Source: a virus
Taxonomy: Duplodnaviria; Caudoviricetes
Strand: one strand, 5' to 3'
IMG/VR virus record: IMGVR_UViG_3300033076_001139
Span: 32,001 to 96,000 of that record
DNA: 64,000 nt
Shown here: positions 6,060-40,200 of the stretch, in pieces
Layout: each line of letters begins with the position of its first letter
How positions within the stretch are numbered: position 1 is the stretch's first letter
Position numbers and translations under genes: made by a program
Notes under the pieces: model-generated
Database searches by the model: none
What the model was told of the DNA's origin: nothing
The model's input: only the letters and a program-made list of their open reading frames with translations

Positions 6060-6263
6060 CGTGAAGCAGCCTCCTTGCTGCATTTACTTATGGCAGGAGT
6101 TGCGGGAAAGTTTAGGCTAAAGAAAAACCCCACTGGTTGCCCAGTGGGGTGTGGCTTTTAGTAACCCCTCAGAGCCACGAACTGCGCCGAGCTATACGAC
6201 TCGGGGAACCCTTGATCACCCGTGCACAGGTGTGTTCCGTCTACGACTCCCACGTCTGGGAGG

Positions 6264-6344
6264 TGGTCGGGGATGCCAGATTCGAACTGGCGAAAAACCT
6301 CTTGCGCCCAAGGCAAGCGCTCTACCCGGCTGAGCTAATCCCCG
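6264..6344 (-). tRNA. tRNA-Pro(UGG)
   Basis: cloverleaf, CT TGG GC loop, CCA. Confidence 0.92.
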
Positions 6345-6353
6345 AAAAATGAG

Positions 6354-6439
6354 TGGTCCCCCCAGCTGGATTTGAACCAGCGATGGCTTGCGCTTCGGGT
6401 TAAAAGCCCGCTCCCTTCGGCCTCTCGGGACATGGGGGG
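6354..6439 (-). tRNA. tRNA-Lys(UUU), long variable arm
   Basis: CT TTT AA loop; about 14-nt variable region; CCA. Confidence 0.85.
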
Positions 6440-16323: not shown

Positions 16324-16466
16324 GGCATTTCTCCTTTTGTGCCATGTTGATGAACACGCGACCGATGGCATCGCGCGAAAGCGGTAAGAGCCCAGCTTCA
16401 ACAACTTATGGCAGAAATTAGGGCTAAATTAGAAACCCCAGAATTGCTCCTGGGGTTTCCTTCAGA

Positions 16467-19836: not shown

Positions 19837-20051
19837 GGTAGTCTCTCCTTGGAAAAGAGTTTATTGCGACAGGGCTACCATTCCTGCGCTATATACTTAT
19901 GGCAGGATTTGCCTATATTTTTAGGCTAAAAGAAATCCCAGACGGCGCGCTTATACGCGCAGCACCCCGTCGGGTGCCGGTCTCATCGTTTGCAGACGGC
20001 CACGTGCGTAGGGCGCATTCTGCGAACCGATGCTGGGATTCCTGAATTGTT

Positions 20052-23316: not shown

Positions 23317-24393
23317 TTACTTCTTTACGATCACCGTCTTGCCGGCCGTCTGCTCTCCCGAGCCGCGCCAGTAAGGAAGCAGCCACTTGTGGATCAAGTG
23401 CCGCTTCTTCTCACCTTCTCCCTTTGTAGCGAGAACGGGCTGCTCCTCTGGGTTCGAGACCCAGTAGGAGTGGATGTGCCCCGCCACAATGTGACGAGCC
23501 ACGTCCTTTTCTCCTCCCGAACTGCTGGCACGTTGAGAAGCGCGGGCCTTCTCGCTCAGACGCAGGATCGTGTGTGCCAGCACCGAGCGTCCCTTGGAGT
23601 TTTCTCGCTCCCGCTCACGGCGTGCCTTGCGATCATTTCCGCGCAAGTGCGGAACGTAGTCCTCTCGGACCTCCGTGATTTGCCCGCGAGTACGCTGCAA
23701 TAGGTAGAGCAGGTTCGTGACCATGTAGATCAGTTCCTGCTGTCCCAGCTGATCAACAGTGGCGTCCGTGAGCTTGAGCGGCTCACCTGGAAGCAGATGG
23801 AACGTGAACAAAGCATCATCCTGCGGCGGCAGGTTGTTCTTGTTCGCGTAGTCCGCTTTCTTGTCCTCGCCCACGGCAACGACCGTCACTGCCGGTTCCT
23901 GCGTAAGCAGCGACATGTCCACGTCATCCCGCTCGACCTTCTCCCGACGACGAGCGGGGTCCGCGTAGCACCGAACGAGATTCTTCGTGAGATAGAAGCC
24001 CTCGATTCGGTGGTTCCCGGACTGATTGTTGTGGATCTCGAAGCACGGCGGGATGGCTACATACATCCCACTGACCGGGACTTCCGGGAGGAGATCAAAG
24101 TTCTCCATCGGAGGCCGGGTGTTTACCAGTGCCCACGCCAGATCCTCATCGAGGATGTAGATGGGCTGGTTGCTCGCGACCCACGAGAAAAGGGCATGCA
24201 CCGCCAGGACCTGCGTGTGATCCGCGATGTGCCCCATGCCCTGCGCCTCGGCCAGAGTGATCAGCATGACGCCGACCTCTTCCGCCGTAACGGGCCGACC
24301 CCCATAGACTTCCTTCAGGAAATCCATGACGCGGTCGGCTCCGCGCAGGTATTTCTCAGGATGCTGCGTGCTACGCAGCTTGTGACCTGCCAT
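23317..24393 (-). CDS. hypothetical phage protein with C-terminal RHxVxGHxxxYW...WxxPYWRG motif
   Basis: about 358 aa, GGAG RBS. Confidence 0.8.
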   Translation of the reverse strand: MAGHKLRSTQHPEKYLRGADRVMDFLKEVYGGRPVTAEEVGVMLITLAEAQGMGHIADHTQVLAVHALFSWVASNQPIYILDEDLAWALVNTRPPMENFDLLPEVPVSGMYVAIPPCFEIHNNQSGNHRIEGFYLTKNLVRCYADPARRREKVERDDVDMSLLTQEPAVTVVAVGEDKKADYANKNNLPPQDDALFTFHLLPGEPLKLTDATVDQLGQQELIYMVTNLLYLLQRTRGQITEVREDYVPHLRGNDRKARRERERENSKGRSVLAHTILRLSEKARASQRASSSGGEKDVARHIVAGHIHSYWVSNPEEQPVLATKGEGEKKRHLIHKWLLPYWRGSGEQTAGKTVIVKK

Positions 24394-24580
24394 AGAAACT
24401 CCGTGCCCGCTTCTCTGCGGCGGGCTTGTTTGCGTAGTGGTACCCAAAGGCGAGGAACAGCTCCTCGTCTCCGATCAGGTAATTGCCCTTCACCGAGCGA
24501 AAGGCTTCATGCGTCGGGCCGTAGAGCAGGCCCGACTTGGTACGCCGCGCGAGGATCCACCTGCCGTCAACGCAGATCAT
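24371..24580 (-). CDS. hypothetical protein
   Basis: coupled chain. Confidence 0.6.
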   Translation of the reverse strand: MICVDGRWILARRTKSGLLYGPTHEAFRSVKGNYLIGDEELFLAFGYHYANKPAAEKRARSFYGRSQAA

Positions 24581-25008: not shown

Positions 25009-25132
25009 AGAACCTCCCTATGAAGGCGGAATTGCCTTCATTTATTTATGACCTAAAAACAAAGACCCTGTTCGGCTGCTGAGCCTCGCACTTCCCGTCC
25101 CTCACGGGCCGAGCAGGGTCTTTGTCGTCGAA

Positions 25133-25347
25133 TGGAGGAGACAAGGGGAATTGCACCCCAACACCTTGTGTGTACAGTCCTACTGAGATACCGTGCGTAC
25201 AGCCGTAGTCGTTACAGGCCTCGTCACACCCATCCCTGGTCCGCGAGAGTTGCCCCTCTCAGCGCCCACCAGTAAGATCATTTTCGAACCGTGGCGTCCC
25301 TTGGAGTTTCTAAGGCTCCGGACGGCAACTTTGCCGTTTCTGTCTCC
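25133..25347 (-). ncRNA. 215-nt tRNA-like structured RNA with encoded CCA
   Basis: GGAGACA/TGTCTCC-T-CCA acceptor, GGGG-TGCAATT-CCCC T arm, own class-A promoter and downstream terminator, no credible ORF. Confidence 0.75.
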
Positions 25348-25377
25348 TCTTTCTTATGGCAGGAAGAACGCCGTCTT

Positions 25378-25926
25378 TTAGACGTTCTTCAGCGACAACG
25401 GAAATGACCGAGCCATCGTCCGACGCATGTCGGACTTCAGGACTTCAGCCATGACCGTGCGCTCCTTGGTCTTGCGACGAGCACCGATGATGAGCTGCGC
25501 CACGGTGTATCGATCAGTGCCCTGCGCAATACGGGCCAGCGTCGTCTGCTTGCCTGACTTGCTCTTGGAGATGATCCGCACGTACTTCGTGTCGGGTGCC
25601 TGCGCCTCCCAGGCAATGTCGTTGAGACGCCGAACGATGTCCGGATCTTCCCACGACGCCCCACCAACGGGGGTCGCCGCAACAGTCTCTTCCGCCTGGG
25701 GCTCTACCACCACTTCCACGGGCTCAGCCGGCCGCAGATCGAGGACCAGCGCGGAGAGCTTCTCGATGACCGTCTTGGTCACGTAGACGGGGTCGGTCGT
25801 GCCGTCAAAAACCCAGAAACCCTCTCCGTCCTCCAGGCTCGTGTACGCGCCGTGGTCACGGAACTTCTTCTCACCAACGGCCTTGTAGGCCGCGAACAAT
25901 TTCTTCGCTTCATTCGTATCGAGCAC
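25378..25926 (-). CDS. hypothetical protein
   Basis: GGGAG RBS, class-A site 25970. Confidence 0.75.
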   Translation of the reverse strand: MLDTNEAKKLFAAYKAVGEKKFRDHGAYTSLEDGEGFWVFDGTTDPVYVTKTVIEKLSALVLDLRPAEPVEVVVEPQAEETVAATPVGGASWEDPDIVRRLNDIAWEAQAPDTKYVRIISKSKSGKQTTLARIAQGTDRYTVAQLIIGARRKTKERTVMAEVLKSDMRRTMARSFPLSLKNV

Positions 25927-29796: not shown

Positions 29797-30170
29797 GCGA
29801 CCTACTGCGACTTGAGCACAAGATCGACCTGATCATTGCTGCTCTTCAGCACAAGGGAATCCTACTGCCTACCCGTGATCTCCCACAGATGACGGAAATG
29901 GGCACGCCAGGAGATAACTGCCCCGCGTGCGGGTCGCAGGTTCGCCTGACCTTGGATTTTGCCAAAGAAGGCATCATCCGCACATGTGCGTGCGTGCCGC
30001 CAATCCGGGTTGTTCCCGGAATTTCCTCTCTTCTCAATCCCCCCGCCATAAGGAGCGACAATGCCCTCAGTAGCAAGCCCGAAGCAGACAACGCAGTTTC
30101 ACCCGACGCTACGCCGCAAGGTGGTGGCCTCGGCGGACGTACTTCTCCAGCAGGTCCAGGTAGTCGATAA
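29793..30170 (+). CDS. zinc-binding hypothetical protein
   Basis: CPAC...CAC. Confidence 0.6.
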   Translation: MSDLLRLEHKIDLIIAALQHKGILLPTRDLPQMTEMGTPGDNCPACGSQVRLTLDFAKEGIIRTCACVPPIRVVPGISSLLNPPAIRSDNALSSKPEADNAVSPDATPQGGGLGGRTSPAGPGSR

Positions 30171-31813: not shown

Positions 31814-32460
31814 GCCAGGACAATAAGCAGTTTGAGGAATTCCGGGCTCGACTCTTTGAGGAGATTAAGGAAGAGAGCGAAAAGACCGCATCGGAAATGC
31901 AGAAAAAGGCGCGGTACAAGATCCAGCTTTTCTTCCAATCTGAGAGGTCGGACAAGAAGCCCATCGCCTTTACCCTCTCGGTGTGGGAGTCCGGAAAGCG
32001 ACTGCACGGTGGCGGAGACGAGTGTCTCTTTATCTGCCGTCGTCAGCGTGGCGCAGGCGGCAAGCCGTTTGACGTCATGGGCAAGGAAGTGAAGTCGCCC
32101 ATGGGCTGCGGCGGGTTCATCACAGGCGATCTGGTATCCGAGGAGGGAACCATGATTTGTCCTCACTGCCTGCTTCCCCACAAGAGCACGGAGGTTGGAG
32201 ACAGCGTGTTCTTCCGGCTCCCAGTAGATAAAGCAGCAGCCGTACTTGAGCAGTGGTGGTACAAGTTGGGCGGGGACGCGGACGTGTACATGAAGTACTC
32301 GCCGTTTGATGTACGCGTGAAGATGATGCAGGATGCCTACGGGGTGCGTAAAGCCCGAGAGCTGAAGGGCATGACGATCTACCCCCTTGAGAACATCCTC
32401 AAGGACACGGCAACTGGTGCATCTGTCCAATCTCGGTTCCGCGCGCTAATATTGGCGTGA
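31810..32460 (+). CDS. zinc-binding hypothetical protein
   Basis: AGGAG RBS; GCG...CPHC. Confidence 0.8.
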   Translation: MSQDNKQFEEFRARLFEEIKEESEKTASEMQKKARYKIQLFFQSERSDKKPIAFTLSVWESGKRLHGGGDECLFICRRQRGAGGKPFDVMGKEVKSPMGCGGFITGDLVSEEGTMICPHCLLPHKSTEVGDSVFFRLPVDKAAAVLEQWWYKLGGDADVYMKYSPFDVRVKMMQDAYGVRKARELKGMTIYPLENILKDTATGASVQSRFRALILA

Positions 32461-36646: not shown

Positions 36647-36718
36647 CTGAGCCTCCGCACTCTTATGGCTAATAAAGAACAAGTCTTTGCGCGCAAGGCG
36701 CAAGACAGCGCCCGAGCC

Positions 36719-37282: not shown

Positions 37283-40200
37283 ATGATCACGTCCCAAGAA
37301 ATCAACGCGATGATCTCCATGCAGCAGCAACAAGCGGGCTACATGGGGGGCGTCCCCATGGCTGTCCCGATGTCTGGGGCGTCACAATACCCGCCGCAGT
37401 TTAATTATGCCCCACGCCCAATGGGTGCCGCGCAGCTAGGACAGGCCGCAGCGGGCGGCCTTATGAATTCTTTTGGACCAACTGCCGGCGGCATGACCAA
37501 CATGGCCATGAACATCGGCATGGCTGCCGGTGTCGGTGGATGGGCAGCCAATAAAATGGGATTTGCGGGTGCAGGAAACGCGCTAGGTTCCTTGGCGGGT
37601 AATCGATTCCTGACAGGAGTGAGTAACCTAAATCCCATGAACGCAGCGTTCAGTGGGGCGTGGGGCGCAGGAGAGGCAGCAGTTGCTAGTGGTGGCTGGG
37701 GAAGTCTCCTTACTGGGGCAGGTGCCCGGTCTATCGCATTAGGCGCAGCCGAGGGAATTTTAGCCAGTCCGGCCGCTATGATTGGTATTGCAGCAGCACC
37801 AATTGCCATAGGGATGCACCGAGGAGCGCAGCAGTACAGCCAGACCGCCTCGATGCTGGGTGCGTACAATCAGTTTGCAAATCCGTTTGCATCGACAGGG
37901 CGTGGGTTCTCCGAGAACCAGATGTCCTCGATTGTCTCGGGAATGCGCGCGTTACAGGCAAACGACCCGTTCTTGTCTATGCGAGACATGCAGCAGGCAA
38001 TGTCCCGTTTTAACGAAATGGGCATGAATCAGGGGGAACGTGACGCAGAGCAGGTGATGAAGAAATTCACCGCCATGACCAAGAGCATGCAGGCCATGTC
38101 CAAGATGATGGGCACGACCATGGATGAGGCGTCTAAGGTATTTGCCCAGATGCGCGGAGTTGGGTTCTACAGCGGCGCAGACGTCATGCAGAACACCCTG
38201 CTGGGCGGTACGATGCGCGGCCAGGGTATCTCAGGGAATACCATGCTTGGGGCGCAGGCCGCAGGCGGCGGAATTTCGCGTGCAGGAGGTCTCGGTACTA
38301 CGCCAGGAGCCAAGTCCGTTGGTGGGGTCATGGCGATGCTCACCGGAGGTAGGGGAGTTGGTGCCCTGACAAATGAAGAGATGATGAACATCACCGGAGC
38401 TGCTACCCCGGATCAGGCTATCGCACAGCTCAGTACCACGATGGCTGGTAGCCTTACGGGGTTCTACACGCAGACGGGAGTTGGGCAGGCAATGCTCGCT
38501 GCCCTCGGGGAGACCAACGCGCGCGGAGAGTTTACAGGTGGGCTAGACAGCGAGGCGATAGAGGGGCTTCGTACCGGCCGTATCGATATCAACAATCTTG
38601 TGTCTAAGGGACGCGGTAAGGTCTCGACTCGTAATGCCGCCCTTTCCTTCAAGACGCGCGGGCAGGACGTGGCTGGTGCCCTGATCTCGGAGGGAGATCC
38701 CACGGCCGCAATTGGTGCAATTATGCAGAGCGTGGCCGGTGACAAGTTCAGGGACATGGACCCCGAGAACCTCGTCACGCTTCTCACCGAACGTATTCAG
38801 GGTCTAGGCCGCAAAGAGGCCGAGGCCATGACGAAGCTCTACCGAGAAGGGGAGAAGATCCGGCGCGAGTCCCAGCAGCAAATACGTGCCGAAATGCAAG
38901 CAGGTATATTCTCTACTGACATCAGGGAGTACCACTCTCTTGAGGGGTACAAACGTAGAGTGCTCGGCGGGCTTTCTGATCGCTTCACCCCTATATTAGA
39001 GGCCGGACAAGCCCTATCTGTGATGGGCGGCCGGATGACAGAGCGGGCTTCGGATGCCATCTTCGGAGTCACACGCGTGCGCACCGGAAATGACGTTGTG
39101 GACGCTAGACTAGAGAGACTGTCCGAGGGCAGGTTTGACGAAAGCGCAACCGGGGCCGTGGACAAGGGAATGGCCGATACCACGCTTAGTGGTTTGCTGC
39201 GGAGAAGGGACTACGTAGGCGCAACCGCAGAATTTAATAAGACAGACTCACGAGTCCGCGCAGGGAAAAACCTCAATGACCTGTTTGGGAGTCCAGACGC
39301 GGCCGGGAGACAGGTAGTTGCCGGGTCTCTGGGAATGAAGCTTATCAATTATAGTTCTGATATCCGCGCCGGTAAGAGTGCTGCGGACATTGTCCGGGGA
39401 ATGCGGCTAGAAGTTCCAGAGGCAGGAGGTATTGACCAGCTGCTCGGCAGTACAGATACGCTTTCTATTGAGGAGTACCTAGCCGGCGGCGCCGATACCC
39501 TTGGGGGTACCTCGGCGGAGCGACGACAAGCACTAGTAGACGAAGCTATGAGCCTTGGGCGCCCAGAGGTGGCCGCTCTTATTGCCGACATGGGAGTAGG
39601 CAACACAAGGTCGCTGGAGCAAATTAAGTCCTCAGGTACGGATATCCTCAATAAATATGGGTACGTAAACTCGTATACCGCTCGTTCCGGCTACGACAAA
39701 TTGATGGAGTCCGAGAGCCTCGGTGCCGCAGGACGCCTGGGCAAGGCAGGCGTAGACCTAAGTTCCTTCTACAAGATGACGCAGGAAGCTTATGGCGGTG
39801 CCGGCGTAACAAACCAGAGTCAGGGTTACGGCCGTCTGTTGGACGCACTCAGGGCCAAGGGCGTTGATGTGGCGGGTATGACAAAGACCCAACTAGACGC
39901 GCTCATGGAGGTAGCACAGGATACCGGTGCTGGACTCGGGGAAAGCCTAACTGCCGCAGACCTAATGTCGCTGGGCGAGGGGGCAAGTGCCGCGCAGTCT
40001 CAGATGGATCTGGCAAATCTGACCGCAATGGCAACCGCAGCGTCAGAAAGTGCGTACGAAGGCATATCAAACGCGGCCGGAGCAGACGAACTGGCGGCCC
40101 TTGCGGGTTCTAGTACGGAGACTGACGTAGCCAAGAACACGTCGGCCCTGCTTGATACGCTAGAGAAGGCTATTGGGTCCGGCGACCTTACGCTGGGTGA

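Follow-up and report, generated by a model that had tools for sequence, protein, structure and literature searches.

Transfer RNAs (tRNAs) of class II carry a variable arm that has been described simply as longer than 10 nucleotides (nt) (PMC7609411), and in those for serine it is this arm, together with G1:C72, G2:C71 and G73, and not the anticodon, that determines identity (PMC9976931). The described systems closest to the RNA reported here are the allo-tRNAs, which have an 8/4 stack of acceptor and T-stem, a long D-stem with a tetraloop, a lengthened anticodon stem, a long variable arm, and G73 or U73; their anticodons are diverse, some copies are inactive, and some lie near toxin-antitoxin genes (PMC5389517). 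Allo-tRNAs engineered to carry aptamers at the tip of the variable arm are still active, or are sequestered by an aptamer-binding protein (PMC7590224). Here we describe a 215-nt RNA gene on the minus strand, at positions 25133-25347 of a 64,000-nt stretch of DNA (referred to below as the window, i.e., positions 32,001 to 96,000 of IMG/VR record IMGVR_UViG_3300033076_001139) from a phage from soil/water, in which a tRNA-like frame appears to bear a variable arm of about 137 nt. In the literature that we searched, no natural tRNA with a variable arm this large has been described. Stable RNAs that are linked to tRNA genes and to tRNA-type processing, i.e., species 1 and 2 (rnaC and rnaD), are encoded by phage T4. 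The IMG/VR phage contig from which the window comes is 151 kb long (G+C 57.6%) and 81% complete.

Results

A Structured RNA at Syntenic Phage Loci

An earlier note on this DNA, made from the sequence, had proposed a stand-alone, tRNA-shaped RNA gene at this position. On reading the minus strand, we found GGAGACA at 25347-25341, the hairpin ACGGC-AAAGTT-GCCGT, the anticodon-like arm GGAG-CCTTAGAAA-CTCC, the helix GAGAG-GGGCAA-CTCTC, the T-arm GGGG-TGCAATT-CCCC, and TGTCTCC-T-CCA with its 3' end at 25133, followed by a terminator (25126-25055), all as the note had listed them. A further helix in its list, GTGTG...CACAC, was wrongly drawn: GUGUG (RNA 119-123) pairs with CGCAC (151-155), and CACAC (176-180) falls within a bulge that is not conserved.

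The two checks with standard tools that had been proposed both came back empty. ARAGORN made no call at 25133-25347, and Rfam 15 gave no match there at gathering or permissive thresholds; a permissive scan (E up to 10) of this locus and four homologous loci returned no family, intron or ribozyme match. The RNA family is absent from Rfam and is passed over by tRNA finders.

Syntenic metagenomic contigs were located via the flanking proteins P0002 (downstream) and P0001 (upstream; see Table 1 for both), and searched with two covariance models, one built from the single sequence (R1) and one from five sequences (R2). These models found the RNA at the syntenic place in L086 (a 168-kb contig), L089, L092, L091, L122 and L094, with scores of 109-143 bits (R1) and 191-230 bits (R2). 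The L091 copy has lost its 5' end at the contig edge, and L094 came from a pattern scan of metagenomes. The family comprises five distinct sequences.

Wider searches did not extend it. There was no homologue in GenBank phages when the locus was used in a DNA search, and pattern scans of IMG/VR with a T-arm/acceptor 27-mer, the core of hairpin H4, or a degenerate T-arm/acceptor pattern gave 0 matches each. No RNA homologue was reached by searching P0001, P0002, a 376-amino-acid (aa) protein, or an alignment of P0002 homologues against IMG/VR or GenBank phages. A pattern scan of 185,579 prokaryote genomes gave 11 matches, none of which was confirmed by covariance model. The DNA polymerase A (PolA) of the phage led to 58 related viral contigs; 33 PolA-relative contigs, examined by BLAST, neighbor proteins and models R1 and R2, had neither the RNA nor its neighbor genes, and contained only ordinary tRNAs plus, in three of them, transfer-messenger RNAs (tmRNAs). 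The latter lie at L077:1501-1854, L078:1501-1922 and L079:1501-1903 (contigs G015, G005 and G002), adjoin tRNA clusters, and encode the tags AENQLPIAA, ANNTNAFAPVALAA and ANNNNHFAPVAAAA.

The evidence that the RNA is real comes from covariation. On the model-based alignment, a structure of 56 base pairs (bp) was 95.9% paired, with 16 pairs changed on both sides, and none of 500 column shuffles reached either the paired fraction or the double-change count of this structure. When, as a control, the partners were slid by 1-3 columns, pairing fell to 38-56%. RNAalifold, run on an independent MAFFT alignment, returned the same helices, including P2a, P2b and an eighth acceptor pair, and added a helix (76-80/108-112) with two covarying pairs. 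The copy in the window is not unusually stable when folded alone (z -1.25), so that the case for the RNA rests on the comparison with its relatives and not on folding energy. From this comparison, a tRNA-derived, structured RNA with a giant variable arm is very probably real, and its fold is predicted to be a five-arm class-II cloverleaf. Five distinct homologues retain this fold by compensatory changes, which exceeds what chance would give and supports the stand-alone, tRNA-shaped RNA of the earlier note.

A Predicted tRNA-like Frame

In the acceptor stem, pairs 1-6 are invariant; at pair 7, four sequences have A:U and L086 has U:A. The helix that the earlier note had formed from GGAGACA is kept, although not its length: the stem has 8 bp in four of the five sequences, with a 4-bp T-stem, pair 8:204 being G:C in three sequences, G:U in a fourth and G.A in the fifth. 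The acceptor/T stack thus comes to 12 bp, split 8/4. In tRNA numbering the stem has G1:C72, G2:C71 and, in all five sequences, A3:U70, and the discriminator of the window's copy is U73, in line with the earlier observation that both G3:U70 and A73 are absent. The CCA end is invariant; N73 is U in the window's copy and L122, and G in L092, L086, L089 and L094. Two bases, A9 and A10, link the acceptor stem to the D-arm.

The D-arm-like hairpin H1 was paired in 100% of cells, with four of the six pairs of its stem changed on both sides. The anticodon-arm-like hairpin H2 follows directly, with a covarying stem of 6-7 pairs; its loop, CCUUAGAAA, can be read as C.A plus CUUAGAA, with UAG as the "anticodon". 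Among the homologues the H2 loops differ, ranging from 6 to 9 nt, with the triplets UAG, UCU, UCU(A), CCU and AUU. An H-type pseudoknot around H2 (CCUU/AAGG) was considered and rejected; its connecting loops would have zero length, and it is unconserved.

At the other end of the molecule, the T-stem GGGG/CCCC is invariant and the T-loop, U(G/U)CAAnU, keeps U54, C56, A57 and A58. At position 55, four sequences have G and L086 has U; in the latter, D-loop position 2 (A to G) and T-loop position 55 (G to U) have changed jointly. This joint change, a single event, hints at a tRNA-like elbow.

Outside the family, R2 scored highest on two tRNA-Ser genes of phages, at 35.9 and 30.1 bits; tRNA-Ala and tRNA-Leu came next, and in each case the arm was skipped. 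When the arm was shortened in silico, ARAGORN at default settings called L086 as a tRNA with an 8-nt loop and, at relaxed settings, called L092 as Arg(tct), L089 as Asn(att) and L094 with a two-base "anticodon". The Rfam tRNA-Sec model (RF01852) had no match at the locus, which we attribute to the 137-nt insert; it matched six ordinary tRNA genes of the phage, best of all a tRNA-Ser gene. The earlier note had suggested a new class of tRNA mimic. With regard to the shell this goes too far, because the predicted outer frame is class II and of the tRNA-Sec or (8/4) allo-tRNA type, i.e., of an already-described kind (PMC5389517). The novelty lies in how large the variable-arm domain is and in how well it is conserved.

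A Giant Variable Arm with an Invariant Core

As had been proposed, the insert (about 137 nt) lies at the variable-arm position: the covarying helix P2a (51-55/183-187), in which two pairs are changed on both sides, adjoins the T-stem. Helix P2b (56-62/168-174) has four such pairs, and on the 3' side there is a bulge of 8 nt with YCAA at its end. We predict that the arm is a bent rod, made up of P2a, the bulge and P2b, capped by a three-way junction whose core is invariant. The junction contains the conserved strands GAAnnnGAUCUUA and AGUA; AGUA is invariant, as is GAUCUUA, and the phage genome has no site complementary to the junction strand.

At the base of the P3/H3 hairpin, pair 78:110 is GC in three sequences and CG in two, and pair 79:109 is GC in four and AU in one. 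An alternative helix, UACU/AGUA (74-77/164-167), was dropped in favor of P3, which covaries. The H3 tip occurs as two types, one in the window's copy, L092 and L086, and the other in L089 and L094. Of the 10 lower pairs of H4, nine are invariant in the five sequences and one toggles between G:U and G:C, while in its tip helix (128-131/144-147) two of the four pairs are changed on both sides.

Table 1. Features of the RNA Gene and Its Flanks in the Window
Feature	Position	Strand	Details
Downstream gene P0002	24577-25008	-	143 aa, DUF1281_C; served to locate syntenic loci
Intrinsic terminator	25055-25126	-	13-bp base helix GACAAAGACCCUG/CAGGGUCUUUGUU, then U-run
Acceptor 3' strand and end	25133-25144	-	RNA 204-211, discriminator U (212), encoded CCA (213-215)
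T-arm	25145-25159	-	RNA 189-203; GGGG / UGCAAUU / CCCC
Variable-arm domain	25161-25298	-	RNA 50-187, about 137 nt; P2a, 3' bulge, P2b, three-way junction
H4 hairpin	25186-25235	-	RNA 113-162; invariant lower part GGGAUGGGUGUGA-GAGG / G-ACGCACGGUAUC, two internal loops
P3/H3 hairpin	25236-25272	-	RNA 76-112; base helix 76-80/108-112 conserved, tip variable
Junction strand GAAnnnGAUCUUACU	25271-25285	-	RNA 63-77; GAUCUUACU invariant in all five distinct sequences
Anticodon-arm-like hairpin H2	25299-25321	-	RNA 27-49; upper stem GGAG/CUCC, loop CCUUAGAAA
D-arm-like hairpin H1	25322-25337	-	RNA 11-26; stem of 5-6 bp, tetraloop A-R-G-U
Acceptor stem 5' strand	25340-25347	-	RNA 1-8, GGAGACAG; partner RNA 204-211
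Promoter-like region	25353-25380	-	TAAA overlapping stop codon of upstream gene, spacer, GCCATAAG at 25360-25353, about 5 variable nt, RNA position 1
Upstream gene P0001	25378-25926	-	182 aa, no family; stop codon within promoter-like region

An Optional Cassette

The promoter-like region and the RNA (together about 250 nt) are cleanly missing from L120/L121, L123, L125, L124, L090, L093 and one Joint Genome Institute contig, in all of which the same terminator stands within a few bases of the stop codon that ends the upstream gene. The relatives without it can be very close: P0001 of L120/L121 is 94% identical to that of the window, with a near-identical terminator, and P0002 of L123 is almost identical to that of L086, which has the RNA. 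The tree of P0002 requires at least two gains or losses. The RNA and its putative promoter form an optional cassette, gained or lost among close relatives.

Between the window and L122 the RNA is 100% identical amid flanks that are 65-93% identical, and between L092 and L091 it is again 100% identical, with flanks of 62-82%. For the RNA to be identical amid diverged flanks, either purifying selection must be very strong or the cassette must have been exchanged recently, and both would fit a useful accessory gene. In L094 (4700-4790, minus strand), the RNA and terminator are followed by a convergent gene in place of the P0002 block, so that there the cassette travels with the upstream and not the downstream gene.

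Promoter, Terminator and Neighboring Genes

Upstream of the RNA, TCCTGCCATAAG and CTAAA are unchanged across three homologous loci. The motif GCCATAAG, at the place where the earlier note had seen a promoter, occurs seven times in the window compared with 2.06 expected, a count that none of 100 shuffles reached. Probably it serves as the -10 element in a class of promoters specific to the phage, and the region might be driven by a phage sigma factor. The motif is mostly on the minus strand (6087-6094, 16405-16412, 19896-19903, 25353-25360, 36662-36669 and 39789-39796), with one site on the plus strand (30045-30052). In G009, a related contig, a sequence resembling it, TATAAGAAAG, lies upstream of a cluster of tRNAs (L064, around position 1275).

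The terminator has a predicted energy of -38.1 kcal/mol (z -3.74), and none of 200 shuffles was as stable. It is kept in all relatives, standing directly after the upstream gene where the RNA is absent, and P0001 homologues hold the same position with or without the RNA. Judged from these signals, the locus appears to be a genuine phage gene for an RNA of about 215 nt, transcribed separately. The stretch that separates the terminator from the ribosome-binding site of P0002 also holds a hairpin, TGAAGGCAATTCCGCCTTCA (25020-25041), that is nearly invariant in all relatives, RNA-bearing or not; it may be a terminator for the opposite strand or a regulatory site.

Further downstream, the protein encoded at 23317-24447 (minus strand) has no Pfam match at E 0.01; its orthologues in L086, L089, L090 and L123 match PF26125 (AcrVA2-like), some of them weakly. 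Because of these matches, the RNA may lie in a block that holds counter-defense genes. The block adjoins lysis-type genes (SLT and GH46).

The contig has 13 tRNA genes, all of which encode CCA. Two of them, at 6264-6439 (minus strand), are unusually long for their anticodons, i.e., tRNA-Pro(UGG) of 81 nt and tRNA-Lys(UUU) of 86 nt. This suggests extra-arm bodies on what are normally class I tRNAs, and that the phage has several irregular tRNAs.

Discussion

What the RNA does can be addressed only tentatively, and the reading that we favor is that it may be a mimic or decoy of tRNA-Ser with a conserved handle, acting in the conflict between phage and host. The tRNA frame would supply tRNA-like maturation and stability, and would display the marks by which tRNA-Ser is recognized, i.e., the long variable arm, the G or U of position 73, the first pairs of the acceptor stem, and the CCA end. 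The H2 loops vary both in size (6-9 nt) and in sequence, so that decoding by the anticodon-like loop is unlikely, and this loop would be idle. The invariant variable-arm domain would be a high-affinity handle for a partner, and the RNA would soak up or divert a factor of the host that recognizes tRNA-Ser from the length of its variable arm and whose action is on the CCA end. Candidate targets, which are conjectural, are a nucleotidyltransferase toxin of the DUF1814 family (AbiEii/MenT) or seryl-tRNA synthetase (SerRS). MenT3, a member of DUF1814, the family of the abortive-infection toxin AbiEii, chooses tRNA-Ser via the long variable loop and lengthens this tRNA at the CCA end (PMC11162799, PMC11541572). 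This selectivity, the occurrence of allo-tRNAs near toxin-antitoxin genes, and the sequestration of aptamer-tagged allo-tRNAs by an aptamer-binding protein together make a tRNA-Ser mimic plausible.

Several observations weigh against a tRNA-Ser mimic. In L094 the eighth acceptor pair is a G.A mismatch under the 8/4 reading, and a 7/5 split fits that sequence better. The window's own copy has U73 rather than G73, and was not called by ARAGORN even with in-silico deletions. The variable arm carries an 8-nt bulge after 5-6 bp, and a bulge near the variable arm's base can block SerRS (PMC7590224). The family consists of only five distinct sequences, all from one narrow phage lineage. Finally, a simple decoy has no obvious need for a 137-nt arm with an invariant core, and the core may bind something outside tRNA biology.

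An alternative is a riboregulator or aptamer scaffolded on a tRNA, in which only the variable-arm domain would be functional, either by base pairing via GAUCUUA, an invariant single strand, or through a protein partner with no connection to tRNA biology; the frame would do no more than allow processing and lend stability, as it does in engineered tRNA scaffolds. We regard this as possible although somewhat unlikely. It would account for the finding that sequence conservation is highest in the core of the three-way junction and in H4, while the D-arm, the anticodon-like arm and P2 are kept as structure only and the anticodon loop drifts. However, the acceptor sequence, the T-arm and CCA are invariant too, which goes beyond the needs of a scaffold, and the phage genome offers no complementary target. 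A natural fusion of tRNA and aptamer, i.e., a serine-type tRNA whose variable arm has turned into an independent functional domain, with the topology by which the messenger part of tmRNA is believed to project, strikes us as unlikely.

We consider it improbable that the RNA is an active translational adaptor, i.e., an allo-tRNA-like molecule, charged with serine, that reads rare codons (CUA here, AGR in relatives) and uses the arm as a regulatory or recruiting tag. All five loops do show the anticodon-loop pattern Y-U-NNN-R, and UAG, UCU and CCU fall within the set of triplets reported for (9/3) allo-tRNAs. Moreover, natural allo-tRNAs insert serine in Escherichia coli (PMC5389517; PMC7609411), and tags on the variable arm are tolerated (PMC7590224). 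Against this, the loops have 6, 7, 8 or 9 nt, their triplets differ among close relatives, and ARAGORN rejects the window's copy whether truncated or not. In addition, 19% of the leucine codons in late genes are CUA, and tRNA-Leu(UAG) and tRNA-Arg(UCU) are already among the tRNAs of the phage; a serine-charged reader with UAG would therefore be costly to the phage's own proteins.

A tmRNA-like RNA for ribosome rescue, with its messenger part in the variable-arm domain, is very improbable. The connector helix of tmRNA departs from the tRNA-like part as a class-II variable arm would (PMC3985003), so the topology is alike, and the PolA relatives encode tmRNAs whereas the contig of the window has none. 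However, A3:U70 is present in all copies, and the D-arm and anticodon-like arm are complete. Frames anchored on the invariant blocks differ in length and stop from one homologue to the next; indels in H3 shift the frame, and consequently no reading frame or stop is common to the aligned homologues. RF00023 and ARAGORN miss the RNA yet detect the tmRNAs of the relatives (77-126 bits). No gene for SmpB or SerRS was found in the contig, the one match (13.9 bits) being below the cut-off. The absence of a common frame largely refutes a tmRNA-like reading. The earlier note was right to set the RNA apart from canonical tmRNA, and its suggestion of a ribosome-rescue variant is not supported.

It is just as hard to credit an intron-containing tRNA from which the inner 120-130 nt would be removed after transcription to leave an ordinary allo-tRNA with a short variable arm. 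Deleting RNA 56-182 does leave a variable stem of 5-6 bp, and ARAGORN accepts such truncations for four homologues. Yet there was no match to a group I intron, group II intron or other ribozyme in Rfam, no bulge-helix-bulge motif was seen on inspection by eye, the insert is in the variable arm, and the anticodon loops of the product would still have 6-9 nt. Bacterial tRNA introns lie at the anticodon-loop position and are longer. Least credible of all is a decayed tRNA pseudogene or chance similarity, which would explain the lack of ARAGORN and Rfam calls and the ordinary folding energy of the single sequence, but not 16 covarying pairs, 100% identity amid flanks that are 62-93% identical, or a promoter and terminator of its own.

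Two further roles raised in the earlier note find no footing. For a decoy of anticodon nucleases, the anticodon-like loop is the least conserved part of the molecule. For a tether like the Y RNAs, the ends form an acceptor stem with CCA rather than a Ro-binding stem, and the 151-kb contig has no match to a TROVE/Ro60 gene. The sole von Willebrand factor A (VWA) protein of the contig (616 aa; G000:C1:6015-7865, minus strand, i.e., L002:6015-7865) has a C-terminal VWA domain, an N-terminal part without a family, and an invariant HExxH near residue 78, on account of which it resembles a metallopeptidase; many large phage contigs have this protein conserved.

Natural tRNA variable arms are short hairpins, and a conserved arm of 137 nt would be a natural docking site for a whole RNA domain; the arm as such a dock was previously known from the topology of tmRNA and from aptamer-tagged tRNAs made in the laboratory. 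Should the RNA be charged and accepted by the translation machinery, it would represent a present-day counterpart of an intermediate between class-II tRNA and tmRNA. Should the giant arm instead bait toxins of the AbiEii/MenT type that select tRNA-Ser by its long arm, it would be the first RNA counter-defense of that kind. Mimicry of tRNA-Ser would suggest that the host has factors directed against tRNA-Ser in the course of infection, although the targets named above are conjectural. Because natural phages with and without the cassette coexist, its function is open to direct comparison.

How, then, does the RNA compare with known systems? Like the YrlA Y RNAs, which also occur in phages, it joins a tRNA mimic to a conserved module, in their case a protein-binding one (PMC4201824). 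However, YrlA ends in the Ro-binding stem with the tRNA mimic internal, whereas the ends of the phage RNA are the acceptor stem and CCA, and the latter has neither an Rfam match nor a TROVE/Ro60 gene in its contig. With tmRNA (RF00023), which is present in related phages, it shares an acceptor/T end with CCA and a large domain leaving at the variable-arm position (PMC3985003). It differs in its size (215 nt, compared with 354-422 nt in the relatives), in having no G3:U70 and no conserved tag frame, and in keeping the D-arm and anticodon-like arm.

The likeness is greater to the (8/4) allo-tRNAs and the phage (8/4) tRNA-Ser, with which the RNA has in common the 12-bp 8/4 stack, the long D-stem with its tetraloop, and the lengthened anticodon stem (PMC5389517). 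As in (8/4) allo-tRNAs, the variable arm is long, position 73 is G or U, and the anticodon triplets vary from copy to copy; some members of that group are thought to be non-translational, and they occur in soil metagenomes and phages (PMC5389517). Unlike them, the phage RNA has an arm that runs to about 137 nt and includes a three-way junction and a core that does not vary, and an anticodon-like loop of 6-9 nt; moreover, the allo-tRNAs were found with the Rfam tRNA-Sec model, which does not match it. The engineered, aptamer-tagged allo-tRNAs (PMC7590224) resemble it in bearing an RNA module on the tip of the variable arm, through which a module-binding protein can either sequester the tRNA or recruit it; these, however, are synthetic, active suppressors with small hairpin aptamers, whereas the phage RNA is natural and its module is about 120 nt long.

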